This document shows, piece after piece, positions 93-15,083 of a stretch of DNA of 64,000 nucleotides (the stretch's first letter is position 1; every line of letters begins with the position of its first letter). Under the pieces are notes generated by a model. It searched no databases and was not told where the DNA came from. It was given only the letters and a program-made list of their open reading frames with translations. Source of the DNA: Pseudomonadota bacterium (lineage in GTDB: Bacteria; Desulfobacterota; Anaeroferrophillalia; Anaeroferrophillales; Tharpellaceae); contig JAYEGS010000244.1 of the NCBI GenBank assembly GCA_034659215.1, positions 12,659 to 76,658 on the forward strand. The letters are read 5' to 3'. The position numbers and the translations under genes are program-made.

Positions 93-2465
93 TCAGATGA
101 GGGTTGACAATTGTAACAGGGTTGCGAGTTTTTCGGTGGTAATCGTGTCATTTACGAGCTCCGGCTGATGACGGGCAAAGTAGTCTTGAGGGGTTGTGTT
201 TTCCGGGAGAATTTCTTTAAAAGCCTGATCACTCTCCGACGACTCAGATGATTTGTGCGAATATTCGGTAAATTTTTTCTCAATTTCATAAAGTGCTTCC
301 TGATAATGTTTTGCTTTCAGATCTTTGCGATAGTAACTCTCCGCCAGACGATTAAACTCTTCAGCTCTCAGGCTCATCGGGGTTGACCCTGGAAGATCAT
401 GCATTATTGCCCGGCTCAATCGGGCACTGGTTCCGGCTTCCGGGTTACTGACTCTCTCTTTGAGATCGGCAATGGTCTCTTCCAGGTTCATAATCTCTAT
501 CAGATCACCGCCATCATCCTCTAAAACCCTGATAAGAGCCTTACGAAATTCGCTTTGCTGAAGACGCATATATCCGTGATAGCGGCCACTGGATCGAATT
601 TTGTCGGTTTTTTTTAAAATTTTTTGCATAAAGAGATTCGGACTCCCCTTGCGCACAAAGAAGGTCGGAAGACCTATTGCCGCACCAAAAAAGATCTGCC
701 GTCTCTCGCTTTCGATAGAGGGAGTATCCGGAATGTCATGATGGCGGATTTCCCCTTTTATTATATATCTATACGCCAGAGCCGTAATCAGAAGCTGGAG
801 GTCGGCAGCGTTGGCGAAATCGTTTTTAAAATCATAAAAAAGGCTGTAGTAACGCCCTTCAAAGCCCGAAAAACCGATATCTTCAAAACGCCGCATTTTA
901 TAGAGCAGGTAAAGAGACATCGAAGAGTCAAAAACCCCCTGGCTGGCGAGATCCTTTAAAGTACGCCGGTCATTACCAGGTATACCGTCCAACGCCGGAT
1001 TACTATCAGTGCTCATCAACGCCACCAGATAATCGAGTAGACGCTGGTCCGGAACAAAGTCACCTTTTAATCTGAAAATATGACTCAAAACCCGATCCAG
1101 CTGCTCCGGACCGAATGGCGTAAGCGGCTGCCCCAAGATACTGATGTTAGCCTTCTTTTTCCAACGCCGCCAGATCATTCGCAGATGAGTGTAATCGAGT
1201 TCGTGAGGAAGAAAACCCAAGACTTTTTCGGGATGAAAATCGGCAAAAGCCAGACGCCAGGGTGCGGCGCTGTAGGTACCGACAAAGAGAGAGAGGAAGT
1301 GTTCGCTGATTTTTATCACCAGATCTCCCGCCCATTTTTCATGCCGCTGCGTAAAACAAGGATGTTTCTCCGCCAGAAGCCGGGTCAATTTTTGGCTGCC
1401 CAGACTTAAATGAGTTCCATTATTGGCAAGGCTTATATTTGATGTATTAGGCATTATAACCAGATTGCTGGTTATAATGCCGGCATCCTTTAACTTCTTC
1501 ATCGCGTTAAGCCGGCTCCGCGACAGAACCTGGTGACATAAGATCATATATTTATGCTTTGCTTCTCCCTGATCCCAACCGGAAAGGCAGGGATTCATAA
1601 AGAGCTCACGATAAAAACTGTCCGGAACAAGATCGTTGAGCTGGTTCTGACGCCGGGGAGAGGTCGGCGCAAAATAGACCTCAGCTTTCTGACCATGCCG
1701 GTCGAGCTTGAAAACCCGGTTGGCATACTGGATCAGCATCTGAGTGAAAGCATAACGGCGTGCCATCTCGGCTGCCGTATTCTGCCCGAGACTTAAATCA
1801 CTGTCGGCTCGGCTCAATTCGAATGAAAAGGTTTCAGGGGAGGTGTTGTCACTCAAATAGTGCGCCATGAGCCGCTGCGCATTTTTTTTAACCACTTCCG
1901 GCGTATCCGAAGAGCTGACAGACTGAGCCAGAGCCAATTTGAAAAGATAGCTGATCGGTACCCTGAGCCAGGTTTCACCATCCTGAGTGAAGGTAAATTT
2001 ATCGGAATCAGAGCGCTGCAAACTCCCGATCAAGTGTTTATTGTCCTTAAGATCACCTGTAAAAATCTTTAAAGCATAAGAACTTAGGTAGGCAACCGGA
2101 AAGCGGACCCAACTGTTCTCCCAGGCTTGCATCTGATCATCATCGTCAAGGTAGCTGTTCAGATCAGCAAGTCGGGACCTGGGCATATCACCGGAATTAA
2201 CCCGACGCATCAAGTTTGTGTAAAAATCAGAATTCCTGATGCTTAAGGGGAGGTCTACGTTTAAAGCGGTGCCGGAGACTGCCGTCTGGAGTTCATTTTC
2301 AGTACCGGCAGTGGCATCACCGGCAATAAAGGGGAGTTTTTCCGGGTCGGGTTTGCGACGATCATTTATTTGAAGAGCGCGACACAGATCTAAGCCACAA
2401 GCTTCTTCTGCGACCTGATCAAGGGATTCGTTCAATTTAATAATTGTGGGCGGTTTTGACATCAA
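93..2465 (-). CDS. large conserved hypothetical protein (790 aa)
   Basis: Long uninterrupted ORF, tail-to-head with the GT4 and PHP genes on the same strand. I cannot assign a catalytic motif. Confidence 0.5.
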   Translation of the reverse strand: MMSKPPTIIKLNESLDQVAEEACGLDLCRALQINDRRKPDPEKLPFIAGDATAGTENELQTAVSGTALNVDLPLSIRNSDFYTNLMRRVNSGDMPRSRLADLNSYLDDDDQMQAWENSWVRFPVAYLSSYALKIFTGDLKDNKHLIGSLQRSDSDKFTFTQDGETWLRVPISYLFKLALAQSVSSSDTPEVVKKNAQRLMAHYLSDNTSPETFSFELSRADSDLSLGQNTAAEMARRYAFTQMLIQYANRVFKLDRHGQKAEVYFAPTSPRRQNQLNDLVPDSFYRELFMNPCLSGWDQGEAKHKYMILCHQVLSRSRLNAMKKLKDAGIITSNLVIMPNTSNISLANNGTHLSLGSQKLTRLLAEKHPCFTQRHEKWAGDLVIKISEHFLSLFVGTYSAAPWRLAFADFHPEKVLGFLPHELDYTHLRMIWRRWKKKANISILGQPLTPFGPEQLDRVLSHIFRLKGDFVPDQRLLDYLVALMSTDSNPALDGIPGNDRRTLKDLASQGVFDSSMSLYLLYKMRRFEDIGFSGFEGRYYSLFYDFKNDFANAADLQLLITALAYRYIIKGEIRHHDIPDTPSIESERRQIFFGAAIGLPTFFVRKGSPNLFMQKILKKTDKIRSSGRYHGYMRLQQSEFRKALIRVLEDDGGDLIEIMNLEETIADLKERVSNPEAGTSARLSRAIMHDLPGSTPMSLRAEEFNRLAESYYRKDLKAKHYQEALYEIEKKFTEYSHKSSESSESDQAFKEILPENTTPQDYFARHQPELVNDTITTEKLATLLQLSTLI

Positions 2466-2482
2466 TTAGAGCTAACCCATAC

Positions 2483-3562
2483 CTATAAAGACTGAGGAAG
2501 GGGCAGGAATGAATCCGCCCTGGGATTACACTTGACCGCTGAAGCCGATTTTAAATCATTCTGCAAAGCCAGGTTTGCAAGAAAAATCTCTGCTGTCTTC
2601 TGCCAGGTAAACTCTTCTGCATACCTGCGGCAAACTGCGGGGTCGAGATCCAACGCGGCCAGAGCCGCCTTGCGCAGGTCCCTGTCAACATAGCCGGTCT
2701 TTCCGGGTTTGATTACATCGATGGGACCGGTCTCAGGAAAGGCTGCAACCGGTAGACCACAGGCCATCGCCTCGAGCATAACCACGCCAAATGTGTCACT
2801 TTTCGAAGGAAAAACAAAGACATCACCACTGGCAACATGTTGCGCCAGCTCTTCTTCCTGTTTAAAACCACACCAGAAAACCTTATCGTAAAGCCGGCTA
2901 AGGCGTTTGCGATCGGGACCATCGCCTACGACCACCTTGCTGCCGGGGAGATCGAGTTTGAGAAAAGCATCGAGATTTTTTTCCCGGGCAACCCGGCCAC
3001 AATAGAGGAAAACCGGTCGGGGCAAAGCGGAAAATTTTCTATCTCCTTTTTTTAGCGGCTTGAACTTTTCCGTATCTACCCCCCTGGTCCAGGTTACAAG
3101 ATTTCTAAATCCCCGGCCGACCAAAGTCTGCTTCAGAGATTCTGTCGGGACCAGAGTAGTTTTTGCGGCCCCATGAAAGTGCCGCAAAAAAGAGTAGGTC
3201 AAAGCTTCAGGAACCGCGGCGTACTCTTTGAGATAGATCGGAAACTGAGTATGATAAGAGGAGCTGAACGGAAAGCTGTTTTTTAAGCACCAGCGCCTTG
3301 CGGCTCTGCCGACAGGGCCTTCAGTGGCAATATGGACAGCGTCAGGTTCAATTTTTTCGAGGAGTTTCGCAACCCTTTTGTAAGGGCGAAAAGCGAGTCT
3401 TATCTGAGGGTATCGGGGGCAGGCAAAGGTCGGCCCGATACCGGGATGTATAACCTCCAGTTGATGCCCCTCTATTTGCAGTATTTGACCAGTTCTGGTC
3501 CAGGTGGTAACAACACCGTTAATCTGCGGAAGCCAGGCATCACTGCAGAGAGCTATCTTCAT
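2483..3562 (-). CDS. glycosyltransferase family 4 (GT-B, group 1)
   Basis: Typical GT4 layout, with an N-terminal ...DAWLPQINGVVTT... domain and a C-terminal GDGPDRKRL / E-x7-E-like region. 21 nt separate it from the upstream PHP gene. Confidence 0.75.
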   Translation of the reverse strand: MKIALCSDAWLPQINGVVTTWTRTGQILQIEGHQLEVIHPGIGPTFACPRYPQIRLAFRPYKRVAKLLEKIEPDAVHIATEGPVGRAARRWCLKNSFPFSSSYHTQFPIYLKEYAAVPEALTYSFLRHFHGAAKTTLVPTESLKQTLVGRGFRNLVTWTRGVDTEKFKPLKKGDRKFSALPRPVFLYCGRVAREKNLDAFLKLDLPGSKVVVGDGPDRKRLSRLYDKVFWCGFKQEEELAQHVASGDVFVFPSKSDTFGVVMLEAMACGLPVAAFPETGPIDVIKPGKTGYVDRDLRKAALAALDLDPAVCRRYAEEFTWQKTAEIFLANLALQNDLKSASAVKCNPRADSFLPLPQSL

Positions 3563-3585
3563 TCTATTTTTTCCTTATAAATTTA

Positions 3586-5466
3586 TCAGGCAGCCGCTGC
3601 ACTTTTCTGCAAGCGACAGGAGTTGCGGTTAAAAACTATTTTCTCAGGCGCAATCCCCTTACTGACCAGATGTTGTTTGTCATGCTTATTGTCAACAATA
3701 ATAAGATCGGCCAGAGAAGCACTCCAGTCAATAAAGCGCTCCAGAAGCCGCCCCAGATCACTCTCATGCCAGAGCCTTTGTGAAGTTTTAATAAAACTTC
3801 GTTGATAGAGAAATGTGGATTTGATATTGAGAAGATGGGCCCCCGCCAGAACTGCTATTCCCATGGAGTTGGGAATTGATACGATGACCCTTTCCGCCTG
3901 AAGCTCTTCCAGACTGCGAAAAACTTCCAGAAAAGGGGGCAGCGGCAGCTCAAAAGCTGCTCCCTTGCCAAGCTTGACATAAGAAACCGGTTTAAAGTTG
4001 ACAATATCTGGGTCATTTTCAGCCTGATTCGGGTCACAGGTCATAGTTACAACCGAATAAAATTCACCAGCAGCAGCAATGGAATCACAAGAGGTATTTA
4101 TAATCCCGTTTAGCTGAGGCCTGAGTTTGCGGCCCGCAACAACAACACTCCGGGGAGATGTCTGAGGGAGGTCAAGTTCAGTTGCCAACTCTTTTAGAAA
4201 TAGATCGTCCTTGTGCTGGGTCGAGAAAGCGGCAAGATAGGGCGCTATCGCCAAAGCCACCGGCCCCAGAGCGGTGATTGTCTGCAAGGCATCAAACAGG
4301 TTTCCATGACGAAGGTGCCTAAGAAACTGCTCGACAAAACGCCAACTCAAGTGGTGGCAGATTTTACAGGAAGCCGCAAAAGATCTCTCCTGCGCCAGCT
4401 GATCGTCGAGGGCACTATTAAGCGACCTCGTAAAGAGCTGACCAATCTCATCAACAATCACTCTTTCGATCGGGGAAAACTGACGCTTTTTTCCGGCCCA
4501 GCATATTTTATCGACAAACAGTTTGTAACGACTCGGCCAGCTTTTCGGTTTATCGTCGTTCGGTGAAAGCAGATTCTGTAAAAAAGCTCCCAGCAGATCA
4601 TTGCTGATTTTTTTGTCAACCCCGAAACGGTCTTTATAATAACTGTAGGCAATTTTATAGAAGCTATGCGCAAGTTTCAGTGAATTGCCGGAACTGCCGC
4701 CCGGAAAACAGCGACCATTCGCAATATTTATAAGGTACTCAGACAAGTTTTCACCGGCAGAAGTTTCTGTCCAAGCCGTAGCTATAAAACTTCCGCTATG
4801 GTCATCACTGCCGCCGGTAAATGTTTTCAGCCAGGGCTTATAACCAATCGGCAAAAGATCATGTTTTGCCGACAGATCGTCAATCAGTTGCGGGGTCAGA
4901 GAACTGCAGATCAGCTTAAAGAGATCAGCTGCCCGAGGATCACGACTACCGTTGATAGCTTCAAAATGGGTAAACAGGAGGAGAAGTTTTTCGAGATGTT
5001 CCCGGTCAAGCCGGTCATCAACCCGAAAAAGAGGATGGGCTACCGAGTGAATGATTCTCTCCCTATCGATGTACCCCTTAAGATCGTAAACATTTTTTCG
5101 CAGATAGCTCAACTCAGCAAACTGTTTTTCTGAAATATCATACACCAGAATATGCAGTTTAGCCGGCACTTCGGGAAAATAGGTGGTAAGTTCGCAACTT
5201 AAAAAAGTATCGGCAAGATGCGAGATTTCCAGCGCACCTTCAATTTTATTATGGTCGGTTATCGTAACATAGTCCATACCTGAAGACTTTGCCTTGCGAT
5301 ATATCTCAAGCGGCTCAACATAACTTTCCGGTGCTCCAATCCGTCTGAGAAACCATTCACTGGGGCGATTTGAATATTTGCTGTGAACGTGTAAATCGAC
5401 TCTGGTGGTCATATCTTTCTCAAAAAATTGTTTTTTCCAGGTTGGCCTGACTTCATCAACGCCCAT
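3586..5466 (-). CDS. PHP (polymerase/histidinol-phosphatase) domain-containing protein
   Basis: N-terminal DLHVHSKYS...ITDHN metal-binding histidine motifs typical of the PHP fold. The long C-terminal region is unassigned. Confidence 0.6.
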   Translation of the reverse strand: MGVDEVRPTWKKQFFEKDMTTRVDLHVHSKYSNRPSEWFLRRIGAPESYVEPLEIYRKAKSSGMDYVTITDHNKIEGALEISHLADTFLSCELTTYFPEVPAKLHILVYDISEKQFAELSYLRKNVYDLKGYIDRERIIHSVAHPLFRVDDRLDREHLEKLLLLFTHFEAINGSRDPRAADLFKLICSSLTPQLIDDLSAKHDLLPIGYKPWLKTFTGGSDDHSGSFIATAWTETSAGENLSEYLINIANGRCFPGGSSGNSLKLAHSFYKIAYSYYKDRFGVDKKISNDLLGAFLQNLLSPNDDKPKSWPSRYKLFVDKICWAGKKRQFSPIERVIVDEIGQLFTRSLNSALDDQLAQERSFAASCKICHHLSWRFVEQFLRHLRHGNLFDALQTITALGPVALAIAPYLAAFSTQHKDDLFLKELATELDLPQTSPRSVVVAGRKLRPQLNGIINTSCDSIAAAGEFYSVVTMTCDPNQAENDPDIVNFKPVSYVKLGKGAAFELPLPPFLEVFRSLEELQAERVIVSIPNSMGIAVLAGAHLLNIKSTFLYQRSFIKTSQRLWHESDLGRLLERFIDWSASLADLIIVDNKHDKQHLVSKGIAPEKIVFNRNSCRLQKSAAAA

Positions 5467-5626
5467 AATTTATCTGTCCAAAGTTAAATTAAGTTAAAGA
5501 AAATATTAATTATTTTTAAAGAAAAAATATTTAGCAAGACAAAAAATTTATCTTATCTTAACGATTTCAAGTTATGAACTAGCCTTGATGCAATCCAATC
5601 AGGCCTAAAAAAGGAGGAAAACAATA

Positions 5627-6169
5627 ATGGCTTTTGTTAACAAGCAGGAGTTTGGTCTGACTTTCGGGGAAACCGATAGCCTGGTCAGCGAAATTGTTGA
5701 GCTCCTCAAAAAACATCATGTTTTCGACGAGGGCTATCCTGGTCGAGATCTGGTCGAGGCGGAGAAGGTAAAACTCTCTTTTCGCAAGAAGGAAGATGTT
5801 TCCAAAGTAAAACTCCAACTTCAATTCCCGGAAAAGTTCGAGTATAATCCGAAAAGTGAAAGGGAATTACTTGAAAATCCCAAACTTAAATACAGTAAGT
5901 TAAAAAAAATGATGAAAAAATCCTATGCCGAACTCTGCCGGGCAGTTCAGGATGATATTTTGCCGCCGGCAGATCTGGTTGGAAACTTCATTAATCAATC
6001 GGCAAAAATGGTGACCTACGGCGGCCGTGGTGATGAGCACTACGACCGATATTCCGACGCCTGTTTCAATTTCAAGCAGGCCTATGATGATGGCGACCAG
6101 GAAAAAATGAAGGCAGCTCTGGCACGGGTGCAGAAGATAAAAAAAGAGTGCCATGAGCACTACAAATAG
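5627..6169 (+). CDS. GAK-cluster small protein, possible XXXCH-domain protein
   Basis: RBS AAGGAGG 7 nt upstream. The C-terminus ends ...KKECHEHYK. It is the first gene of a co-directional cluster with ATP-grasp, HprK-like kinase, amphi-Trp and CofD-like genes. The domain assignment comes from memory of the TIGRFAM description. Confidence 0.4.
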   Translation: MAFVNKQEFGLTFGETDSLVSEIVELLKKHHVFDEGYPGRDLVEAEKVKLSFRKKEDVSKVKLQLQFPEKFEYNPKSERELLENPKLKYSKLKKMMKKSYAELCRAVQDDILPPADLVGNFINQSAKMVTYGGRGDEHYDRYSDACFNFKQAYDDGDQEKMKAALARVQKIKKECHEHYK

Positions 6170-6184
6170 AGAAACGGAGTCAAT

Positions 6185-7345
6185 ATGGGCATAGCCGACA
6201 GCCTGAAAATCGTACCGGTTTCAGGCAACCTTCCGGAAGTAGATCAAGATATCTGCGAAGCGGACGAAAAAAGATTTTTCAAAGTTGTATCTACTAAATT
6301 GAATGATCTCGAAACTCAACGAATAACTACGCCCGAAGAGGTGTACAAAAGAGAGGAGGAGGTGCTGGCAGTTCATTGGCACCCTGAGTTTATTCCTCTT
6401 GATCTGATTACCGAAAGAATCGAAAAACTCTACCCCAATCGCCGCCGTGAGCTGATCATCCCCACCCAGCACAACGTCATGCTGGATTACAACGGCTACT
6501 CCGGGGTGGAGGTTGATTGTTATTCAAGCGGATTTAATCGCAAGGTCCAGCTGTTAATTCACTTCAACTCCAGCTTAGTGCGCGACAAGGAGTGCGGGGT
6601 TTTCGAAAACATTCTCGAGCATACTTTCAAGTACCGCTCATCCCAGCTCTTCAGCTTCATGGGAGCCCTGACCAAGCCCAAGCAAGAATGGCTGGAAAAA
6701 GCGGCCCGCGAAACCGGCGCCCGACCGGAGCTGATCGATTTCATCGCCTCTCATGTTAAAAAAATAGAGTCTTTAATTGAACTTCACTACGATCACATAC
6801 CCAGAGCCAGCATCAAAAACAAACTTTTACGAAACTATTTTTATGAGCTTGCCGACACTCTTGATGAAGCTGTAATCATACGGATTCAGGCTTTTCTAAA
6901 GAGCCTCAAAGAGATTGTTAAGAAAAATTTTTCCCTGAAATTCTTCTATCGAACTTCAGAAATAATCGAGGAAGCCCGATCTCTGGGGGCAGGTATTGTA
7001 ATTCCTCACCCGGAACAGTTCTGGCCCATTCTGATGGCTGATTATGATGTCGATGGCTACGAAATCTGGAACCCTCAATCCCGTGAATACACAGAGTTCC
7101 TAATTTCGGTCTTAAATCGACGCAACTCCAACCATAAGGGTCGCAGACTCCTGGCATTCATGGGTGACGACACTCATTTTGGTGAAAAAATCAAACACCC
7201 TGATGAAAGAAAAAAAGAGAAAGGCGACCGGGAGATCGGACTGCAACCGGCTTGGAATGATCTTGCTATCAGTAAAGAGTTGATTAAAGCCGGTCTCAGC
7301 AAAACTCAGGTCATGGCCGAATACAGAGCTCGCCTGGACGGCTGA
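6185..7345 (+). CDS. hypothetical protein (GAK cluster member)
   Basis: ORF 16 nt after the previous gene, on the same strand. No recognisable motif. Confidence 0.5.
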   Translation: MGIADSLKIVPVSGNLPEVDQDICEADEKRFFKVVSTKLNDLETQRITTPEEVYKREEEVLAVHWHPEFIPLDLITERIEKLYPNRRRELIIPTQHNVMLDYNGYSGVEVDCYSSGFNRKVQLLIHFNSSLVRDKECGVFENILEHTFKYRSSQLFSFMGALTKPKQEWLEKAARETGARPELIDFIASHVKKIESLIELHYDHIPRASIKNKLLRNYFYELADTLDEAVIIRIQAFLKSLKEIVKKNFSLKFFYRTSEIIEEARSLGAGIVIPHPEQFWPILMADYDVDGYEIWNPQSREYTEFLISVLNRRNSNHKGRRLLAFMGDDTHFGEKIKHPDERKKEKGDREIGLQPAWNDLAISKELIKAGLSKTQVMAEYRARLDG

Positions 7346-7361
7346 AACTGGAGAAAAATTT

Positions 7362-7628
7362 ATGGATTCCAAAAAGTTCTCGCACATCTCAATTCAGGAT
7401 ACTGAAGCTGTTAAACTTTATCTTAAATCTCTAATTGAGGCCCTTGAAAAGAAACAGATCACTTTATCCTCCGGTAAAGAAAAAATGGAGATGACTGTAG
7501 GGGATTTATGCCGTGTCTCAATCCAGGCAAAGAAAAAAGGGCCTGAAAACAAACTCTCGATCAAGCTTAACTGGAAGGAAAACGGCAAACTGATGGAACT
7601 TTCGGAAGATGATGTCGAAATACTCTGA
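7362..7628 (+). CDS. amphi-Trp-like small protein, paralog 1
   Basis: 88 aa. It parallels the 85-aa ORF at 12653: acidic N-terminus, then K-rich, then a conserved Trp in KLNWKEN versus KLSWKQE. Confidence 0.5.
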   Translation: MDSKKFSHISIQDTEAVKLYLKSLIEALEKKQITLSSGKEKMEMTVGDLCRVSIQAKKKGPENKLSIKLNWKENGKLMELSEDDVEIL

Positions 7629-7646
7629 ACATCAAGGTATCGATAA

Positions 7647-9317
7647 TTGAGTAACGAATTTTACGAGATCCAGAATCTCGAAGATAATTTCAGCCTGCTC
7701 CTAACCGAAACTTCCAGTCAGGTGGAGCGCTCGTTCACGTTCATAGAGACTTTTTCGCAAGATCTTTACGAAAAGGTCGTCCAACGCGACGACTACATCG
7801 ACAACCTCAAGCTGACCATTGAAAATCAATGTTTTGACTCACTGCGTAAACTTACCAGTAAAAACAAAGAAGAGATGTCTCAGATTCGGGCGCGTCAGAT
7901 TATCTGCGTTAACCTGGAAAAGATCGCCGATTTCTGCGTCAATATCTGCAAGCAGGTTGAGTTTATCCACGATAAGGATTTCTGGCTACAATTCAGTTTT
8001 CAACCAATGTGCCGAATGATAGAGGAGAACCTCAAGCAAATCGAAGCTACCCTTAGCGAGAAAAGTGTGGCCAAAGCCATGATCATCTGCCGGTCGGAGT
8101 GTGAACTTGACGATCTCTTCAAGGAAAATTTTGACCAGATAATGCTTTTTCTCCGGACCGGAGAGCAGGTCGATACCTGCGTGACCACCCTCTTCATCTT
8201 CCGCTATCTCGAACGTATGGGGGACTCTCTGCTTAATATCGGAGAAGCAATACTGCTGGCAATACTGGGTGATAAAATAAAGATCCGTCAGTTTGAAGCG
8301 ATGCAGCAGAGCCTTGATCAATCAGGCATGGAGATTCCACCGGAAAAACTTGAAGTAAACTCATTTCTGGGAACCCGTTCCGGCTGCAATATAAGCCGAC
8401 TGGCAAACGAAGTTAACCAGGGTTTAAGCGATGAACGTCGGGAGGGTCTGTTTAAATCGGGAAACCCCGAGAAAATCGAGCGGGAAAAGGATAATATTGA
8501 AGAGTGGTCAAGGATAAAACCGGGCCTTGTGCCAAAGATATTCTCCTTCCAGAAAGAGCCGGACCGCAGTTCAATGCTGGTGGAATTTCTATCTGGCCAG
8601 ACACTTGAAGCTACGATAGTCTCCTGCAGCTGGCTGGAAATTGACCAGATTATGAATGAACTCAAGGCAAACATTGTTGAGATCTGGAAAAAAACCGCGA
8701 TCAGGAAACCGACTCCCACTAACTACATGGACCAGCTTTTAAAAAGAACTGAGGCGATCAGGACAATCCACCCTGATATCATGTCGGATGGTCAGATTAT
8801 TGGCGGAGTTGAAATCCCCTCGGCAGAAACTCTGGTAAAAAATTGCCGCCACTGGGAGAGCCGGACACCAGCCCCCTTTTCAGTCTTTGGTCACGGCGAT
8901 TTCAATGTTAACAATGTTCTCTATGATTTTGAGAAACAGGCCCTTCACTACATCGACCTCTACCGCTCACATCGGGCTGACTACCTGGAAGATGTTGCGG
9001 TTTTTCTGGTTTCCAACTTTCGCCTGCCGATTTTTGACCGGGAGACCCGTAAAAAAATCAACAAAACGATTATCAGCTTTTACGATTTTGCCCACGATTT
9101 TGCTCAAAAGAACAAGGATCAGACCTTTGCCCTGCGCCTGGCTCTGGCACTGGCAAGATCCTTCATGACTTCAACCAGATTTGAACAAAAACGAAAATTC
9201 TCCCGGGAGATGGGATTGCGCTCAACCTATCTTTTAGAAAGAATTGATCGACATTTGAGCAGCAATGGTTCACCGGTTGATTTTTCTTTCCCCAGGAGTA
9301 TACTTATCTTGCCCTAA
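7647..9317 (+). CDS. PhoU-like domain fused to a protein-kinase-like/APH-fold phosphotransferase
   Basis: N-terminus has PhoU signatures: DDYIDNLKLTIENQ and RYLERMGDSLLNIGE (compare ERIGDHATNIAE). C-terminus has HGDFNVNNVLYD, a kinase-like HGDxxxxN catalytic loop, and DLYRS (DxD-like). Confidence 0.55.
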   Translation: MSNEFYEIQNLEDNFSLLLTETSSQVERSFTFIETFSQDLYEKVVQRDDYIDNLKLTIENQCFDSLRKLTSKNKEEMSQIRARQIICVNLEKIADFCVNICKQVEFIHDKDFWLQFSFQPMCRMIEENLKQIEATLSEKSVAKAMIICRSECELDDLFKENFDQIMLFLRTGEQVDTCVTTLFIFRYLERMGDSLLNIGEAILLAILGDKIKIRQFEAMQQSLDQSGMEIPPEKLEVNSFLGTRSGCNISRLANEVNQGLSDERREGLFKSGNPEKIEREKDNIEEWSRIKPGLVPKIFSFQKEPDRSSMLVEFLSGQTLEATIVSCSWLEIDQIMNELKANIVEIWKKTAIRKPTPTNYMDQLLKRTEAIRTIHPDIMSDGQIIGGVEIPSAETLVKNCRHWESRTPAPFSVFGHGDFNVNNVLYDFEKQALHYIDLYRSHRADYLEDVAVFLVSNFRLPIFDRETRKKINKTIISFYDFAHDFAQKNKDQTFALRLALALARSFMTSTRFEQKRKFSREMGLRSTYLLERIDRHLSSNGSPVDFSFPRSILILP

Positions 9318-9320
9318 ACT

Positions 9321-9329
9321 AAATAACCT
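9321..9329. repeat. 9-bp target-site duplication AAATAACCT (left copy)
   Basis: Identical 9-mer at 10646..10654, immediately outside the IS inverted repeats. Confidence 0.7.
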
Positions 9330-10645
9330 CAGTGTTGTCCGGTTAGGAATTTGCATGTAAAAAATATAGAAGAAAATTGAAAATAATGTCATTTTTTACT
9401 TGACATTCGAGCAATAGTGCGCGCGCGATTTTACCTGTAATATCAACTACTTACAGGGGGAATTGTAAATGCCGCGCACTTTGTCACCAAAAAAATTTGG
9501 TCGATTACCATCGTTTAAATCAGTCCTCTTTCCGCTTACTGGAGCATCTTGTGGCGTTCCAGAATTAATATCTGGAAGTAATAGAGATTTGAAAATGACA
9601 TTTGAAGATCAACTTAAAGTTATGGTCTACTTCCATTTGAAAGATTTTAAGTCTGGTTGCCACCTGCTACAAGATCTACAGGAAGATGACTTTGCAAAAG
9701 AGTTTATAGCCCCCAATGGTGGAATCGGTAAAAGTACATTTTTTGATTCGCTAAACGAACGTGGCCTCGAACAATTCTTACACGTTTTTCAAAATCTGTT
9801 TAAACAAGCGAGTAATCAGATACCTAAAGAATTTTCTGAACTGGGAGATCTGGTTGCCATTGATGGTTCCCTGATCGATTCGGTTCTCTCCATGGTCTGG
9901 GCCGACTATCGCAAAGGGTCAAAAAAAGCAAAAGTCCATTTTGGGTTTAACGTTAATTGCTCTATTCCACAAAAGGTTTTTTTAACCGATGGCAATGGAG
10001 CCGAACGGCCTTTCGTTCAAAAAATTGTGGAACCAGGTCAAACAGGCATAATGGATAGGGGTTATCAAAGTCACGACCTGTTTGATCAATGGCAAGAAAA
10101 TGACGTCCATTTTGTCTGCAGAATCAAAGGCAATACTCAAAAAACTTGTATTAAAGAGCTTCCTTTTGAAACCGGGGGCGACATCTTCTATGATGCAGTG
10201 GTTCGCCTGGGTCAACCTGGCGTAAATGAGACTAAAAAGGATCTACGCCTGGTTGGTTATAAAATTGGCGACAAAAAATATTGGGTTGCGACCGACAGGT
10301 TTGATCTAACGGCTGAGCAGGTCGCCTTAATCTACAAACTGCGTTGGAACGTGGAATCTTTTTTTGCCTGGTGGAAACGCCATATGCGAGTATATCATTT
10401 AATTTCAAGAAGTAAGCATGGGTTAATGGTTCAAATATTATCAGGTCTTATCACATACCTGTTGCTCGCCATTTATTGTAACAATGAATTTGGCGAAAAA
10501 GTTAACATTAAGAGAGTGCGTGAATTACAAATAAAAATAGCCAATGAGATTCGCCAGCTGGATCAGGAACCTCCAGATTTTGATCCGGTGGAAGAAAACT
10601 GGACAGAACCATTATTGCAAGCAAATCTCTAACCGGACACCACTG
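9330..10645 (+). mobile_element. IS4-family insertion sequence (1316 bp), intact
   Basis: Left inverted repeat CAGTGTTGTCCGGTTA at 9330..9345. The right one at 10630..10645 reads CAGTGGTGTCCGGTTA as reverse complement, a 15/16 match. It is flanked by the 9-bp direct repeat and holds a single DDE transposase ORF. Confidence 0.8.
9469..10632 (+). CDS. IS4-family DDE transposase
   Basis: DDE residues lie in VAIDGSLID, IMDRGYQS and YKLRWNVESFFAWWKRH (the Y-x2-R-x3-E-x6-K IS4 signature). The stop codon overlaps the right inverted repeat. Confidence 0.85.
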   Translation: MPRTLSPKKFGRLPSFKSVLFPLTGASCGVPELISGSNRDLKMTFEDQLKVMVYFHLKDFKSGCHLLQDLQEDDFAKEFIAPNGGIGKSTFFDSLNERGLEQFLHVFQNLFKQASNQIPKEFSELGDLVAIDGSLIDSVLSMVWADYRKGSKKAKVHFGFNVNCSIPQKVFLTDGNGAERPFVQKIVEPGQTGIMDRGYQSHDLFDQWQENDVHFVCRIKGNTQKTCIKELPFETGGDIFYDAVVRLGQPGVNETKKDLRLVGYKIGDKKYWVATDRFDLTAEQVALIYKLRWNVESFFAWWKRHMRVYHLISRSKHGLMVQILSGLITYLLLAIYCNNEFGEKVNIKRVRELQIKIANEIRQLDQEPPDFDPVEENWTEPLLQANL

Positions 10646-10654
10646 AAATAACCT
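10646..10654. repeat. 9-bp target-site duplication AAATAACCT (right copy)
   Basis: Matches 9321..9329. Confidence 0.7.
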
Positions 10655-10682
10655 CTTACTCAACCTATTGAGGAATCAATAT

Positions 10683-11576
10683 ATGAAAATTGGAGTAGTA
10701 GGAACTGCCGGCGGCTGGTCATCTGAACTTCTCGCCGATAGAGTCGCTGAAAAGACCGGCTCCCGTCTCCTGATCGAGATGGACAGAACCCGGCTCGATC
10801 TGCCGGCCGGAAAACTCTGGTTCAACGATGTTGACCTGACAACTCTCGATGCCCTGCTGATAAAAAAAATCGGGCAGCGTTACTCGCCTGATCTCCTGGA
10901 TCGCCTCGAAATGCTGCGGATCTTGTCTAAAAAAGATGTTTTAATCTGTTCCGACCCGCTTAAAATCCTGCGCGTTCTGGATCGTTTAAGCTGCACTGTA
11001 ACCCTGCAGGAGAACGAAATACCGATGCCGGAAACTTCGATCACGGAAAATGTTGAACTTGCCGCCGCCATAATCCGGGATTATGGCGAAGCCGTACTGA
11101 AACCCCTCTACTCAACCAAGGCAAGAGGCATGACGATAGTAAGCGACGGCCCAGACCTTATTAAAGTGCTGGAAAATTACAAAAAAGAGAATACGATTAT
11201 CTATATTCAGAAAAAGATCGACCTGGGCGAGTTTGACCTGGGGCTGGTTTTTCTGGGCGGCAAATATCTGACCACCTATGCCCGCTGCCGCCAGGATAAA
11301 ACGGCATGGAACACAACCACAGCGGCCGGCGGTAAATACGCCGCCATTGATCCCGAACCGGAAGTTATTGAGCTTGCCCGCCAGGCTCAGGCACCCTTCG
11401 GACTCGATTTCACCTGTGTCGATGTTGCTCTGACAGATGCGGGGCCGGTAGTTTTTGAAGTTTCTGCTTTTGGTGGTTTTCGCGGCATCCTTGAAGCTCG
11501 AGGTCTGGATGCTGCTGCTCTTTTAACTGACTATGTAATTGAAAAAGTGGACAACCATAATGACACAAACAGCTAA
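10683..11576 (+). CDS. ATP-grasp enzyme (RimK/GshB-like), GAK-system type
   Basis: ATP-grasp fold motifs (LKPLYSTKARGM, IYIQKKIDLGEFDLGLVFLGGKY, ...FEVSAFGGF). Preferred start is the ATG at 10683 with GAGGA 8 nt upstream. The ORF-track TTG is at 10668. Confidence 0.7.
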   Translation: MKIGVVGTAGGWSSELLADRVAEKTGSRLLIEMDRTRLDLPAGKLWFNDVDLTTLDALLIKKIGQRYSPDLLDRLEMLRILSKKDVLICSDPLKILRVLDRLSCTVTLQENEIPMPETSITENVELAAAIIRDYGEAVLKPLYSTKARGMTIVSDGPDLIKVLENYKKENTIIYIQKKIDLGEFDLGLVFLGGKYLTTYARCRQDKTAWNTTTAAGGKYAAIDPEPEVIELARQAQAPFGLDFTCVDVALTDAGPVVFEVSAFGGFRGILEARGLDAAALLTDYVIEKVDNHNDTNS

Positions 11577-12651
11577 AAGTCTGAATCAACTGGCAGAAGA
11601 GTTTTTAAGTGGCGTTAGTCTTACGCAAACGCTATCTTTAAAATTTGAAGATTATCTCATCGGCATCCAGAGCAACTCTCACTCTTTGATTGAAAATTTG
11701 CGGCACTATTTCGCAGACTTTGTGGTTGAGGGTAGTGCGCCTGCACTTCTGGTGACAGCTATCGAGATGGAGCAACCTAAGTTTGACCTCCACTTTGAGA
11801 TCAAGGTTCCGGACCCCGGAAAAACTAAAATCAAGGAAGAATTTGTTAATATCGAAGGCGGCAGGATAGTCAGGAAACGCTTGACCGGCATGAGCTTTCT
11901 CTTCGGTGGCTCTATAAACCTGGCGCTTGGTCCATGCCGGGCAAACTCAAACCAGGTAATAAACTTTATCAACAACCGGTTTATCTCCTACAAACTTAAT
12001 CAGGGCTGCCTCCTCGGTCATGCTGCCGCTGTAACTGCAAACGGCAGAGGTCTGGCGCTGGCAGGATTTTCCGGGATGGGAAAATCAACCCTGGCCCTGC
12101 ACCTGATGAGTCGCGGCGTGAAATTTGTCAGTAACGACCGGCTCCTGGTTGACGCTGAGAGAAAAGATGAATTGAAAATGTACGGGGTTGCCAAGCTGCC
12201 GCGGATTAATCCGGGAACCGCTCTCAACAACCCCGACCTCGTCAAAGTTCTACCGGTCGATGACTACAAACGTTTCTCTCTGATTGAACAGGATGAGCTC
12301 TGGCAGGTCGAGCATAAATACGATGTTTTCATCGACGACTGCTTCGGCCCCGATCGTTTTCAGATTAAAGCTCAAATGAGCGCTCTGGTAATCCTTAACT
12401 GGCAACATAACGCTCCTGAAACCTTAATCAAACAAGCTGATCTCTCCCGACGACTGCAGATCCTGCCGGCTTTCATGAAGACCGCCGGCCTCTTTTATCT
12501 CGATGAGAGCAACCGAAACGAAGAGATGGAGAGGGTTGATTTTTACCAGGAACAACTCTCCTTATGCCCGATATATGAATTGAGTGGTAAAATTGATTTC
12601 AGCAAGGCGGCTGATTTGTGCATCTCATTATTAGAAGAGACGGAGCTATAG
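11539..12651 (+). CDS. HprK-related P-loop kinase
   Basis: LAGFSGMGKSTLALHLMSRGVKFVSNDRLLVD matches the HPr kinase/phosphorylase C-terminal P-loop pattern G-x-SG-x-GKS...DD. It overlaps the ATP-grasp gene end, consistent with translational coupling. Confidence 0.65.
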   Translation: MKKWTTIMTQTAKSLNQLAEEFLSGVSLTQTLSLKFEDYLIGIQSNSHSLIENLRHYFADFVVEGSAPALLVTAIEMEQPKFDLHFEIKVPDPGKTKIKEEFVNIEGGRIVRKRLTGMSFLFGGSINLALGPCRANSNQVINFINNRFISYKLNQGCLLGHAAAVTANGRGLALAGFSGMGKSTLALHLMSRGVKFVSNDRLLVDAERKDELKMYGVAKLPRINPGTALNNPDLVKVLPVDDYKRFSLIEQDELWQVEHKYDVFIDDCFGPDRFQIKAQMSALVILNWQHNAPETLIKQADLSRRLQILPAFMKTAGLFYLDESNRNEEMERVDFYQEQLSLCPIYELSGKIDFSKAADLCISLLEETEL

Positions 12652-12652
12652 T

Positions 12653-12910
12653 ATGTCTGAAAAAAAAGTGGACTTTACAACAAAGGGTGAAAACCAGGAG
12701 GTGGTTAACTATCTCTCCTCTCTGATTCAGGGTTTTGAAAAAAAGCGTCTTATCCTGACTCATGCCGATGATGAAGTTGTCCTCTACCCCGATGACGAAA
12801 TCACTTTCAAAGTCAAAGCCCGTCTCAAAAAAGGTGAAGCCCGGGTGGAACTGAAACTCTCCTGGAAACAGGAGGCAGAATCTGGTAAAGAGATCTTAAT
12901 CAGCAATTGA
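12653..12910 (+). CDS. amphi-Trp-like small protein, paralog 2
   Basis: 85 aa, paralogous to 7362..7628. Starts 2 nt after the kinase stop. Confidence 0.5.
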   Translation: MSEKKVDFTTKGENQEVVNYLSSLIQGFEKKRLILTHADDEVVLYPDDEITFKVKARLKKGEARVELKLSWKQEAESGKEILISN

Positions 12911-12981
12911 GATCACAGTTATTAACTGGATGGATATTCTCCGACGCAACTACTACTGTCTGAAAGCTTAAAAATGTTCAA

Positions 12982-14208
12982 TTGAGAATGAAACACAAAC
13001 AGTCCGAACCTAACACAAAGATTCTTATCAACCGGGAATTTTCGATTCCCGACCCGGAAAAACTGGAACTCTACCGCTCCAACCCTTCTCTTGGCCCGCG
13101 AATTCTTTTTTTCAGCGGGGGCTCGGCAATCCGCCAGCTCAGCACCAGGCTTATCAACTACACCTGGAACTCAATCCATTTAATAACCCCTTTTGACTCA
13201 GGAGGCAGTTCTGCCGTTTTAAGAGAGGCTTTTCGCATGCCGGCAATCGGCGACATTCGCAATCGTCTTATGGCCCTGGCGGACCAGTCAGTACTCGGCA
13301 ACCCTGAAATTTTCCGGCTCTTTGCCTACCGTTTACCAACTGCCGCTTTAGAAGATGATCTTCTAAATGAGTTTACCAGCATTCTCGAAGGCCGGCATGA
13401 GTTGGTTGCTGCCGTCTCATCACCGATGCGTAAGATCATCAGGCATCATCTTAAACTTTTCTCTGAACTAAAGCCGGAAAAGTTCAATCTCGCCGGTGCC
13501 AACATCGGCAACCTGGTCCTGACAGCCGGCTACCTTGAGAACCGCCGTCATCTTGACCCAACCATTTATATTTATTCGAAATTAGCCGAAGTGCGGGGAG
13601 TTGTCAGACCGGTTGTCAGCGTAGACTGTCACCTCGGCGCTGAACTTAACAATGGAGCAAGGATTATCGGTCAGCACCTTATCACCCGACAGAACAGAGC
13701 TAAAGCAAAGCAGCGAATAGAGAAAATATTTTTACTTGAGGCTGGAAATCCGGTTTCAGACATCAGTGATGAAATCTCTATACGTCCCAAAGTTGCTGAA
13801 CTGATCAATAAAGCGTCCATTATCTGCTACCCGATGGGAAGCTTTTTCACCAGTCTGATTGCCAGCCTGCTGCCTTCGGGGATTGGTTCGGCGCTAGCGC
13901 GAAGCCGAGCGCCGAAAATATACATTCCCAATACGGGAGATGATCCGGAAAGCTTTGGTTTAGACTTGATGGATCAGATCGATACCCTTTTAAACTATCT
14001 GAAGAGAAACAATTCCACCCTAGATGATAAACAACTGCTTAATTTCGTTTTACTTGACAGCAACGAAAAAAATTATACCGGCAAGCTCAATCCGGCAGAT
14101 CTTGAAGAGCGCGGCATCAGAATCATCCGCCGCAATTTAATCTCTGCCGCAAGCAAGCCATTGATCGATGCCGACCTTCTAACTGAAACCCTCCTCTCCC
14201 TCAACTGA
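12982..14208 (+). CDS. CofD-like / UPF0052 (YvcK-like) family protein
   Basis: ILFFSGGSAIRQL...ITPFDSGGSSAVLRE...IGDIRNRL matches the CofD/YvcK N-terminal signature. Confidence 0.7.
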   Translation: MRMKHKQSEPNTKILINREFSIPDPEKLELYRSNPSLGPRILFFSGGSAIRQLSTRLINYTWNSIHLITPFDSGGSSAVLREAFRMPAIGDIRNRLMALADQSVLGNPEIFRLFAYRLPTAALEDDLLNEFTSILEGRHELVAAVSSPMRKIIRHHLKLFSELKPEKFNLAGANIGNLVLTAGYLENRRHLDPTIYIYSKLAEVRGVVRPVVSVDCHLGAELNNGARIIGQHLITRQNRAKAKQRIEKIFLLEAGNPVSDISDEISIRPKVAELINKASIICYPMGSFFTSLIASLLPSGIGSALARSRAPKIYIPNTGDDPESFGLDLMDQIDTLLNYLKRNNSTLDDKQLLNFVLLDSNEKNYTGKLNPADLEERGIRIIRRNLISAASKPLIDADLLTETLLSLN

Positions 14209-14372
14209 CAATGGCCGGACAAAAGTTAACTAAATTCTTCTGCTACCATCTTGAAGATAATTTGATCGGCATTTTTCATCAAGCTCTCCCTCTCACCGAA
14301 TCAACCGAATCCGCTTTTTCTAAAGCAAACAGAGCCTGTTTGGGGCCAGCAACCCCTTTCTGTGCAGCCTCA

Positions 14373-14750
14373 TTAACGCTCTTGGTCCGTATGGTGCGCT
14401 GCATAACTGATTGCGCAATTTCCCCCGCACCACAGAACGTGCCATCTCCAGGGTAAAGAGCTCATCTTTAACCGATTTGAACTGTTTTTGCCGTAAAAAA
14501 CATTTTTCCCGGAGGCAAAGGCAAATTTACCGTTAAACTTTCCGTTTCGATGGAGAAAAACCGTATCGATCTGGTGCCGCATCAAAAGGTTAATCGCGGC
14601 ACTGGTAATCTCGATACGACCGACAATCACCAACTGCTCGGTCTTAAAGGGAAAGATCGACTTTAAAAGATCATCCCCTTTGCGCAGTTGCAGAACATCG
14701 CCCCTTTTTACCAGGCGCCCGTAATCAGAAACCACATAAATGATCGACAC
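14373..14750 (-). pseudogene. cas1: cas1 N-terminal remnant (truncated, ~90 aa Cas1-like then out of frame)
   Basis: MSIIYVVSDYGRLVKRGDVLQL...TEQLVIVGRIEITSAAINLLMRHQIDTVFLHRNGKFNGKFAF matches the Cas1 N-terminal beta-sandwich pattern (v-x-i-x-G-x-v-x-iT-x2-A-x2-L-x4-IP-v-x-Fl-x3-G-x-y-x-G). The ORF stops after 125 aa, whereas Cas1 is about 300 aa. No CRISPR array nearby. Confidence 0.5.
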
Positions 14751-15083
14751 ATTTTCACCTCAGCCAAAAAGGACAATACCAATACCTGCAAAAAAGTTAT
14801 CATGTCCAACCGATAGTGAAGCTTCATCATCAAGCAACAAGAGAATAGAGACTATCAGTTCATCCCGACTTTGGTCATCAACAATGAAAACCCCAAGAAC
14901 ACTGCATAGCTCTCTGAGTTCACCGTTTGACATCACTTCAAGCTGCTGCCGCCAATTCATGATTTCCATCTCCTCCTTCGCATCTACAACCAACCATTTT
15001 CTTCAGAAGGCTTTTTCCATCACAAGGGGAAAGAAGCAACGATTATTGAAGCCAGAAGGTCTCAATCCTTTTTTTCAGGTAAC

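Follow-up and report, generated by a model that had tools for sequence, protein, structure and literature searches.

PhoU, the phosphate signalling complex protein (PF01895; TIGR02135; PDB 2i0m, 1t72, 1sum and 4q25), has to our knowledge been studied so far only as a free protein, and how it senses phosphate and transmits the signal is still debated. Several reports describe control of the kinase PhoR by PhoU according to phosphate status (PMC9239213, PMC13577022, PMC4423584), with PhoU binding the PhoR PAS domain and suppressing autophosphorylation (PMC13577022, PMC9239213). PhoU is not always a standalone protein, as the initial annotation of the locus described here had supposed it normally to be: Na+/Pi cotransporter-PhoU fusions (PF02690 + PF01895, YjbB-like) place PhoU in cis with a phosphate-handling effector. 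Two further groups bear on this locus, the APH/choline kinase/MTR kinase/fructosamine-3-kinase superfamily (PF01636 and relatives) and the GAK system, with its five named NCBIfam families (TIGR04354-TIGR04358). An amphi-Trp protein is among the 20 most abundant proteins of one proteome (PMC13490349). We found no literature on the GAK operon, despite its presence in more than 400 species, among them environmentally dominant sulfate reducers and sulfur-oxidising symbionts, and no relevant paper on amphi-Trp, on the HprK-related kinase or on PhoU-kinase or PhoU-ATP-grasp-CofD combinations; a fitness study of D. alaskensis under phosphate limitation mentions canonical phoU alone.

We analysed a stretch of 64,000 nucleotides (the window), which carries a GAK cassette containing a PhoU-kinase fusion gene, here termed PhoU-APH (Table 1). 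All five named GAK families are present above their cut-offs in one co-directional cluster, bearing out the GAK context proposed earlier. The open reading frame of the fusion lies where it had been placed, as do the motifs quoted for it: DDYIDNLKLTIENQ (aa 48-61), RYLERMGDSLLNIGEAILLAI (aa 186-206), HGDFNVNNVLYD (aa 416-427) and DLYRSH (aa 437-442). Unlike described PhoU proteins, its N-terminal half is covalently fused to a kinase, falls below the cut-offs of the PhoU equivalogs (TIGR02135, 82.7 versus 130.25 bits; NF008332, 49.5 versus 342 bits) and has first-repeat acidic residues that are dispensable in a sister clade; nor is this 556-aa protein a standalone one of ~220-240 aa in a pst operon. 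In the Na+/Pi cotransporter fusions the effector is a membrane transporter and PhoU is C-terminal, whereas here the effector is a soluble kinase. PhoR offers a functional analogy: there PhoU controls a histidine kinase in trans, whereas the PhoU domain of PhoU-APH would exert its control in cis, and over a kinase of the unrelated ELK fold. Compared with the APH superfamily, PhoU-APH is an isolated family of ~330 representatives with an arginine-rich C-lobe, an N-terminal PhoU domain and a low-complexity insert before beta3, and it resembles that superfamily in sequence at the catalytic loop alone (E 4e-6; PDB profile 0.008). Neither PhoU-APH nor the PHP-like phosphoesterase of the cassette has a GAK family model.

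Table 1. Features of the PhoU-APH gene and its cassette, in window coordinates.
Feature	Position	Strand	Remarks
GAK-system XXXCH-domain protein, 180 aa	5627..6169	+	first cassette gene; TIGR04358, 1.6e-25
PHP-fold metal-dependent phosphoesterase, 386 aa	6185..7345	+	helical insert; no family model exists
amphi-Trp protein, 88 aa	7362..7628	+	TIGR04354, 5.2e-16; stop codon 18 nt before PhoU-APH start
PhoU-APH fusion gene	7647..9317	+	556 aa; TTG start
PhoU domain, aa 1-207	7647..8267	+	six-helix bundle, two three-helix repeats
Linker helix, conserved, aa 208-234	8268..8348	+	from PhoU bundle to kinase N-lobe
APH/ELK-fold kinase domain, aa 235-556	8349..9314	+	helical C-lobe
Catalytic loop H416-G-D418-F-N420-V-N-N423 (HGDxxxxN)	8892..8915	+	aligns with catalytic loop of APH profile
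Metal-binding Asp motif D437-L-Y-R440-S-H	8955..8972	+	DFG-equivalent; 'IDLxRS' of APH(3')-type enzymes
Arginine helix, R497, R504, R511	9135..9179	+	spacing i, i+7, i+14; one face of helix 494-512
IS4-family insertion sequence	9321..10655	+	in PhoU-APH/ATP-grasp spacer, just downstream of PhoU-APH
GAK-system ATP-grasp enzyme, RimK/MptN/LysX-like	10668..11576	+	TIGR04356, 8e-130, 432 bits (cut-off 300); true start likely ATG at 10683
HprK-related kinase B	11539..12651	+	TIGR04355, 3.8e-149
Second amphi-Trp protein, 85 aa	12653..12910	+	TIGR04354, 8e-16
GAK-system CofD-like protein	12982..14208	+	TIGR04357, 2e-147

That a PhoU helical bundle and an APH-fold phosphotransferase are truly joined in one gene product is confirmed, both halves matching Pfam profiles above cut-off and well outside what chance would give. 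A weak Shine-Dalgarno sequence, AAGG, lies 9 nt before the start codon. The AF2 model of the whole protein has a pLDDT of 89.6, but its placement of the PhoU domain relative to the kinase is only moderately confident (pTM 0.69; linker pLDDT 56-69). In the linker (consensus GEKIKIxQFxALQQTL), G208 and K212 are invariant, and residues 213-226 are modelled as a helix, with pLDDT 57-81 around it.

The PhoU half matches Pfam PhoU in two stretches (E 3.4e-24; 85.5 bits, cut-off 23.5) and NCBIfam phoU_full over aa 7-204 (E 2.7e-23), and it forms a six-helix bundle as in PhoU crystal structures; the PhoU-like motifs noticed at the outset thus align with both profiles and structures of the family. Its acidic motifs are D48-D49-x-x-D52-N53, E91-x3-D95, E151-x3-D155 and E189-R-x-G-D193, together with N197 and E200. 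Within the Desulfobacterota clade D48/D49/D52, E91/D95, E151/D155 and E189/D193 are all invariant. Only the last motif, E189-R-x-G-D193...E200, is invariant in both clades, conservation of the first-repeat motifs being lost in the gammaproteobacterial clade. Two homologues, P0475 and P0502, keep a PhoU-like helical N-terminus from which the ExxxD acids and the Pfam PhoU match have gone. Ligand sensing through the ExxxD motifs is therefore not universal in the family.

The C-terminal half is bilobal in the AF2 model, as the earlier kinase assignment required, and its elements follow the canonical kinase order through the hinge, the catalytic loop and the metal-binding Asp. In the N-lobe these are beta1, a Gly-loop (G242-x-R-S-G-C247), beta2, an insert, beta3 with K270, alphaC with E280, beta4-5 and a hinge at ~aa 313-317. 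The insert before beta3 is variable and of low complexity. Only 10 residues separate the D437 motif from the next helix in the model, so that there is no activation loop. Among sequence models, Pfam APH is matched at 27.2 bits (cut-off 23.2), Pfam EcKL at E 3e-6 and NCBIfam APH_3p over aa 275-454 (E 1.5e-8); homologues score higher against Pfam APH, P0401 for instance with 50.1 bits. In sequence and profile searches of the PDB with the kinase half, the catalytic loop alone aligned (E 0.008-0.4), so that the fold is assigned from the AF2 model. All of its best structural neighbours are small-molecule kinases, and they do not point to a particular substrate. Of the 'eukaryotic-like/APH-fold' label first given to this half, the APH/choline-kinase type stood, whereas a Hanks-type eukaryotic-like protein kinase did not: PhoU-APH has no match to the Pkinase profile and no activation segment.

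Conservation of the catalytic Asp and Asn, proposed earlier as a check on the kinase assignment, was found for D418 and N423 and also for the metal-binding D437. In a comparison of 74 sequences, which takes in a clade with just 30-33% identity to the query, these three residues are invariant together with K270, E280, H416, G417, N420 and R440, as are D449, D491, S509 and five arginines of the C-lobe (R459, R468, R497, R504 and R511). The Gly-loop is likewise invariant among ~70 homologues, down to 30% identity. The catalytic residues are, judging from this invariance, under purifying selection. With the Gly-loop, K270, E280, HGDxxxxN and D437 all invariant, we read the kinase half as an active enzyme rather than a pseudokinase, and it is apparently a phosphotransferase of the APH fold.

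Homologues of the fusion comprise more than 1,500 clusters at 90% identity and occur in 419 GTDB species, spanning Desulfobacterota and a sister clade in sulfur-oxidising Gammaproteobacteria. The view that a PhoU-kinase fusion was undescribed holds for the literature but not for the databases, where it is abundant under automatic names only, for example 'phosphate uptake regulator/aminoglycoside phosphotransferase'; the entry identical to the present protein (P0001, 100%) is called 'PhoU domain-containing protein'. The kinase half gave 330 matches at E<=1e-3 among 1.84 billion representatives, nearly all of them ~545 aa long with the kinase at ~aa 228-545. The kinase is thus essentially restricted to the PhoU fusion, and we regard the fusion as obligate. 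The one short kinase-only match examined, P0361, is truncated at the end of its contig, with genes for the ATP-grasp enzyme and then HprK-related kinase B after it, so that short matches are no evidence of a standalone kinase; we take the remaining ones to be fragments of the same kind. Genomes bearing the fusion also retain a canonical phoU (locus L001, for example).

The cassette has a fixed gene order: PHP-like phosphoesterase, amphi-Trp, PhoU-APH, ATP-grasp, HprK-related kinase B and CofD-like protein. We searched outward from 81 PhoU-APH loci, taking as denominators the loci with the relevant flank. The ATP-grasp gene was found in 64/67 and the HprK-B gene in 62/67, while the amphi-Trp gene was present in 65/71, in each case directly upstream of PhoU-APH with gaps mostly of 1-14 nt, and the PHP-like gene in 66/71. 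Gene offsets around PhoU-APH are constant across loci. In the reverse direction the sample was small, at least 14 true HprK-B relatives from a metagenome scan for which one search pattern was the P-loop; among the matches listed, each of the 10 HprK-B loci that had enough flank upstream showed the order PhoU-APH, ATP-grasp, HprK-B. These three genes are the sole triad retained in both clades; in the gammaproteobacterial clade a NUDIX gene lies upstream of PhoU-APH and amphi-Trp is found ~3 kb downstream. PhoU-APH and the PHP-like phosphoesterase are as constant in the cassette as the named GAK families. PhoU-APH is a constant GAK member, and we propose that the GAK definition be extended to it. 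As a fixed core member, it is tied to the GAK system much more strongly than had first been guessed.

Several neighbours of the cassette are concerned with phosphate. The gene upstream of amphi-Trp has the PHP fold, and the sister clade replaces it with NUDIX, HisPhos-NUDIX or Metallophos genes. P0401 is a Metallophos-PhoU-APH triple fusion, whose N-terminus matches the Metallophos protein of the cassette at 42% identity (1e-89). The pstSCAB-phoU genes adjoin the cassette in ~11/82 loci, from two taxonomic orders, which is a minority pattern; no pst genes were found among the cassette neighbours at positions 1-22,000 of the window, the rest of which was sampled. At locus L094 a Na/Pi-cotransporter-PhoU gene and PPK1 adjoin the cassette.

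We propose, with a probability of about 60%, that PhoU-APH is a PhoU-gated O-kinase that forms the phosphorylating arm of a phosphate-linked GAK pathway, its substrate being predicted only as anionic. The folds, the invariant motifs, the gene order, the fusions and the phosphate-gene neighbours on which the proposal is based are observed; enzymatic activity, PhoU gating and the anionic nature and identity of the substrate are what we infer from them. The enzyme would be an O-phosphotransferase of the APH/choline-kinase (ELK) fold, predicted to be competent, with the PhoU six-helix bundle as a built-in regulatory module. The Gly-loop, K270 and E280 would hold ATP in place between the two lobes, N423 and D437 would hold Mg2+, and D418 would deprotonate the substrate hydroxyl. 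The substrate pocket would be formed by the helical C-lobe, where the five invariant arginines suggest a ligand that is probably anionic, either phosphorylated or carboxylate-rich; the arginine helix may take part in binding it. Through the conserved helix to the N-lobe, the PhoU bundle may couple kinase activity to phosphate or metal-phosphate status, a cis counterpart of free PhoU restraining the PhoR kinase. PhoU-APH is an obligatory core subunit of the cassette, alongside the ATP-grasp enzyme, HprK-related kinase B, the CofD-like protein and amphi-Trp, and would be opposed by dedicated phosphoesterases; these are of PHP type here, whereas the sister clade has NUDIX, histidine-phosphatase and metallophosphoesterase types.

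An alternative, corresponding to the 'regulatory kinase' of the initial annotation, is that PhoU-APH is a protein kinase acting on the amphi-Trp protein encoded directly upstream, for instance at the near-invariant Ser10 of KFxxESxQD, or on another cassette protein. We consider this unlikely, since the gammaproteobacterial clade does not keep the gene pair together, the closest structural matches are small-molecule kinases and an activation loop is absent. Moreover, the amphi-Trp consensus is for the most part basic, which fits poorly with the anionic ligand that the invariant arginines favour, and the cassette includes an HPr-kinase-like enzyme, which as a protein-Ser kinase would suit an 88-aa protein better; HprK-related kinase B is at least as good a candidate as PhoU-APH for acting on a protein substrate. 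An analogy to LysW-type carriers, which combine a small protein with an ATP-grasp enzyme and a kinase, was considered but is kept as no more than a remote idea, amphi-Trp ending in I-x-S/T/A and not in an acidic Glu. Instead of sensing phosphate or metal, the PhoU half might serve for structure, dimerisation or docking, for instance by tethering the kinase to an ATP-grasp/HprK-B complex, and leave the kinase constitutive. The loss of first-repeat acids in the gammaproteobacterial clade, the helical N-termini that P0475 and P0502 retain after losing all ExxxD acids, and the dimerisation and protein contacts of free PhoU proteins described in one report (PMC11705898) are consistent with such a role. 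It is nevertheless quite improbable, in view of the second-repeat motif kept in both clades, the recurrence of phosphate-transport, polyphosphate and phosphoesterase genes near the cassette, and the occurrence of other PhoU fusions on phosphate transporters.

A pseudokinase or scaffold is hard to reconcile with the invariance of every catalytic residue, and a true aminoglycoside-resistance APH with an incidental PhoU domain fares no better; both seem highly improbable. The top sequence-level kinase matches are indeed APH(3') models, and we take the IDLxRSxRADxxxD motif to resemble that of APH(3') enzymes such as APH(3')-IIIa. However, the APH(3') aminoglycoside O-phosphotransferase equivalog NF033068 scores 34.5 bits against a cut-off of 205, aminoglycoside-binding sites are acidic whereas the C-lobe here is arginine-rich, and PhoU-APH is a chromosomal core-operon gene of more than 400 species and no mobile resistance gene. 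No matches to defence models in PADLOC-DB were found for seven cassette proteins (0 matches), and a defence role is therefore unsupported.

In a natural PhoU-kinase fusion, phosphotransfer would provide a directly measurable output, so that what a PhoU bundle senses and how it controls a kinase would become testable in one polypeptide. As a conserved, never-studied GAK core gene, the fusion is a good handle on the role of the operon, and we regard it as the most informative entry point to the cassette. To the existing picture of the GAK system the present analysis adds a second kinase, giving two rather than one, a dedicated phosphoesterase of a PHP family that had no earlier model, and recurrent phosphate-homeostasis neighbours. 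A broader and rather doubtful extension is that the kinase, gated by phosphate, pyrophosphate or metal-phosphate, switches an uncharacterised pathway for the synthesis and turnover, by the GAK cassette, of a new metabolite or protein modification that is phosphorylated, perhaps also glutamylated, and borne by amphi-Trp proteins; such a pathway might be specific to bacteria with APS/PPi-linked dissimilatory sulfur metabolism, the sulfate reducers and sulfur-oxidising Gammaproteobacteria. On this extended reading PhoU-APH would give the first case of a PhoU domain that senses in cis for a kinase other than a histidine kinase.

No RNA family was detected by Rfam in the whole window, and promoter and terminator counts from 5300 to 15200 were no higher than in shuffled sequences. 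The IS4-family element of the window has a transposase at 9469-10632 and inverted repeats at 9329-9363 and 10612-10646, and is flanked at both ends by the 10-bp direct repeat AAATAACCTC. It is absent from 82/82 related loci, in which ~1650 nt separate the start of PhoU-APH from that of the ATP-grasp gene. Its insertion may uncouple the downstream cassette genes in the source genome.

The gene for the PhoU-APH fusion, a PhoU helical bundle followed by an APH-fold kinase, was recovered exactly as the initial annotation described it, with the four motifs cited there at residues 48-61, 186-206, 416-427 and 437-442. A weak AAGG Shine-Dalgarno sequence lies 9 nt upstream of the start codon, which is 18 nt from the stop of the preceding gene. 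The product matches Pfam PhoU in two repeats (E 3.4e-24, 85.5 bits, cut-off 23.5), as well as Pfam APH (E 4e-6, 27.2 bits, cut-off 23.2) and EcKL (E 3e-6). The NCBIfam full-length PhoU model covers residues 7-204 (2.7e-23) and the APH(3') model residues 275-454 (1.5e-8); both scores fall far under the equivalog cut-offs, and the protein is therefore neither a canonical PhoU nor an aminoglycoside-resistance enzyme.

Features of the GAK cassette region in the window; GAK genes were identified by NCBIfam models scoring over cut-off
Feature	Position	Strand	Remarks
XXXCH	5627-6169		NCBIfam above cut-off
386-aa PHP-fold phosphoesterase	6185..7345	+	
amphi-Trp, first copy	7362-7628		NCBIfam above cut-off
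PhoU-APH ORF	7647..9317	+	TTG start, 556 aa
IS4-family insertion sequence	9321-10655		in PhoU-APH/ATP-grasp spacer
DDE transposase of IS4 element	9469-10632		4e-25
ATP-grasp	10668-11576		NCBIfam above cut-off
HprK-related kinase B (HprK-B)	11539-12651		NCBIfam above cut-off
amphi-Trp, second copy	12653-12910		NCBIfam above cut-off
CofD-like	12982-14208		NCBIfam above cut-off

An AF2 model of the fusion, built from a 67-sequence alignment, has a mean pLDDT of 89.6 and a pTM of 0.69. Residues 235-556 run in canonical kinase order through beta1, Gly-loop, beta2, beta3, alphaC, beta4-5, hinge and helical C-lobe, so that the kinase half proposed initially does have a bilobal fold, just as the PhoU half aligns with both PhoU profiles. 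There is no activation loop, the next helix beginning only 10 residues after D437, and a conserved helix joins the complete PhoU bundle to the kinase.

The catalytic residues of the kinase are all under strong constraint. Among 67 Desulfobacterota homologues (42-47% identity to the query), the Gly-loop residues G242, R244, S245, G246 and C247, K270 of beta3, E280 of alphaC, and H416, G417, D418, N420, N423, D437 and R440 are invariant. When members of a clade just 30-33% identical to the query were added, K270, E280, the HGD triplet, N420, N423, D437 and R440 remained so, and D449, R459, R468, D491, R497, R504, S509 and R511 were likewise invariant. R497, R504 and R511 follow an i, i+7, i+14 spacing along helix 494-512 and thus share one face of it. 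This pattern of sequence conservation suggests an active phosphotransferase with a basic, anion-binding substrate site. All of these family-invariant residues are present in the window copy, which is intact. The PhoU half has four acidic motifs, all invariant within the Desulfobacterota clade; across the whole family invariance is limited to E189-R-x-G-D193 and E200. Two representative proteins, P0475 and P0502, retain the PhoU-like helical N-terminus and have lost the ExxxD acids and the Pfam hit. Some members, these two included, carry a 60-80-residue low-complexity insert rich in Lys, Ser, Asp and Asn between Gly-loop and beta3.

The query matches at least 1,518 clusters at 90% identity, and all of the matches listed are about 545 aa long with both domains. 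In the GTDB species-representative genomes, 419 matched stretches encode a relative; of the 80 loci listed, Desulfobacterota account for nearly all, including Desulfovibrio, Desulfomicrobium, Desulfonema, Desulfococcus and Desulfurivibrio, and one is a MAG labelled Eisenbacteria. A gammaproteobacterial sister clade (1,910 clusters at E<=1e-10, searched with the protein of locus L094) includes Sedimenticola, Sedimenticolaceae and a Lamellibrachia tubeworm endosymbiont. The hosts are sulfate-reducing Desulfobacterota and sulfur-oxidising Gammaproteobacteria (Sedimenticola, tubeworm symbionts), and both groups run APS/pyrophosphate-linked dissimilatory sulfur pathways. Searched alone against 1.84 billion representatives, the kinase half matched just 330 proteins at E<=1e-3, of which 282 reach <=1e-10; nearly every one is about 545 aa long and matched over residues 228-545 or so. 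The one short match examined, P0361, is incomplete because of a contig end and has ATP-grasp and HprK-B genes after it. The kinase domain is therefore an isolated family found essentially only in the PhoU fusion.

Gene order and offsets were constant across 81 non-redundant loci retrieved via the fusion. Measured from its start, approximate positions are -1420 for the 386-aa gene, -280 for amphi-Trp, +1650 for ATP-grasp, +2530 for HprK-B and +3600 for CofD; the gap from amphi-Trp stop to fusion start is mostly 1-14 nt. Where flanks sufficed, ATP-grasp was present in 64/67 loci, HprK-B in 62/67, amphi-Trp in 65/71, the 386-aa gene in 66/71 and CofD in at least 37/58. Conversely, a metagenome scan seeded with HprK-B found PhoU-APH, ATP-grasp and HprK-B in that order in all 10 loci with upstream flank. 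This triad is the sole cassette part common to both clades. The window cassette is chromosomal, flanked by LeuRS, SelA, thiamine and other housekeeping genes, and matched no PADLOC model.

The 386-aa "hypothetical" upstream gene, a member of 1,620 clusters, had no hit in Pfam, NCBIfam or PDB sequences. Its product is modelled by AF2 at pLDDT 90.5, with H64-W-H66, H96, E109, D111, H126, H275, E293, N296 and D328-D-x-H331 invariant. The gammaproteobacterial clade has neither this gene nor XXXCH; its cassette comprises NUDIX, PhoU-APH, ATP-grasp, HprK-B, His-phosphatase+NUDIX, metallophosphoesterase and amphi-Trp, with a divergent CofD (metagenome/Logan loci L091-L095 and L147). L147 encodes an in-frame fusion of the metallophosphoesterase to PhoU-APH (P0401, 1,009 aa); the N-terminus is 42% identical (1e-89) to the separate enzyme, and the order is His-phosphatase, fusion, ATP-grasp, HprK-B, CofD, amphi-Trp. 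Since phosphoesterase genes occur in the cassettes of both clades and in this triple fusion, the kinase consistently has a dedicated phosphoesterase as its functional partner.

Genes for phosphate homeostasis turn up repeatedly at cassette borders. A genuine pstSCAB-phoU operon directly adjoins the cassette in about 11/82 loci, from Desulfobacterales and Desulfobulbales. At L094 the cassette is followed by a CBS pair, a Na/Pi-cotransporter-PhoU fusion and PPK1. In six loci MgtE comes after the cassette. Loci with phosphate-gene neighbours are L001, L017, L039, L040, L045, L048, L049, L008, L051 and L078, together with L094.

We favor, at a probability of roughly 0.6, a competent kinase acting on an anionic substrate, gated by PhoU and coupled to the phosphoesterase. 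D418 would be the catalytic base, N423 and D437 would hold Mg-ATP, and an anionic hydroxyl substrate would dock in the arginine-lined C-lobe, the PhoU bundle gating the kinase by phosphate or metal-phosphate status. Such gating would be a cis analogue of the restraint of the PhoR autokinase by PhoU, which binds the PhoR PAS domain according to two reports (PMC9239213, PMC13577022). Some Na/Pi transporters also carry fused PhoU domains, in parallel to the proposed arrangement. The main alternative is that the kinase phosphorylates the amphi-Trp protein, whose Ser10 is 97% conserved and whose gene is tightly coupled to that of the fusion. We consider this unlikely; the fold neighbors and the arginines incline us to a small-molecule substrate.

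Literature searches turned up no work dealing with the fusion or the GAK system (NCBIfam TIGR04354-TIGR04358), and neither the fusion nor its PHP-like partner has a family model. The initial remark that a described PhoU-kinase fusion was not known holds for the literature, but the two domains are each already known and the architecture is visible in automatic annotations, the only source of the cluster names ("PhoU domain-containing protein", "phosphotransferase", [quoted passage not shown]). The interest of the fusion, moderate to good, is that PhoU signalling could be studied within a single polypeptide, and that the gene gives access to a widespread, uncharacterised operon of sulfur-cycling bacteria.

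The IS4 element has inverted repeats of 35 nt and shows a 10-bp target duplication as a direct repeat (AAATAACCTC). It breaks no ORF and pushes apart the fusion and ATP-grasp genes, which adjoin without it in 82/82 related loci. The GAK genes beyond the insertion may be transcriptionally uncoupled in this genome.

Amphi-Trp proteins encoded upstream of the fusion (the first window copy and 70 orthologues) share a near-invariant N-terminal KFxxESxQD that includes Ser10 (97%). Trp71 is invariant among them, and their shared C-terminal motif is I-x-S/T/A. At position 9 the window copy has Ile where the motif has Glu; it also differs by an Ala at the second conserved S/T site and by ending in VEIL. 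The window XXXCH protein ends in KKECHEHYK, with a weak C-terminal cytochrome c' match (PF01322, E 0.002) where that family's haem-binding motif lies; a putative single-Cys haem site is possible in this cytoplasmic protein. Three divergent genes at 93-5466 (minus strand) encode proteins of 626, 359 and 790 aa, respectively a PHP+GT4 fusion, a GT4/GT1 glycosyltransferase and a product that matches no family. The set also adjoins GAK cassettes in Desulfomicrobium-like loci and L086, and may be an accessory module. Past the CofD-like gene, at 14211-15653, lie an 81-aa ORF and a pair of overlapping ORFs of 122 and 189 aa. None of the three matches Pfam or has an equivalent in related loci, and they may be what is left of another mobile element.
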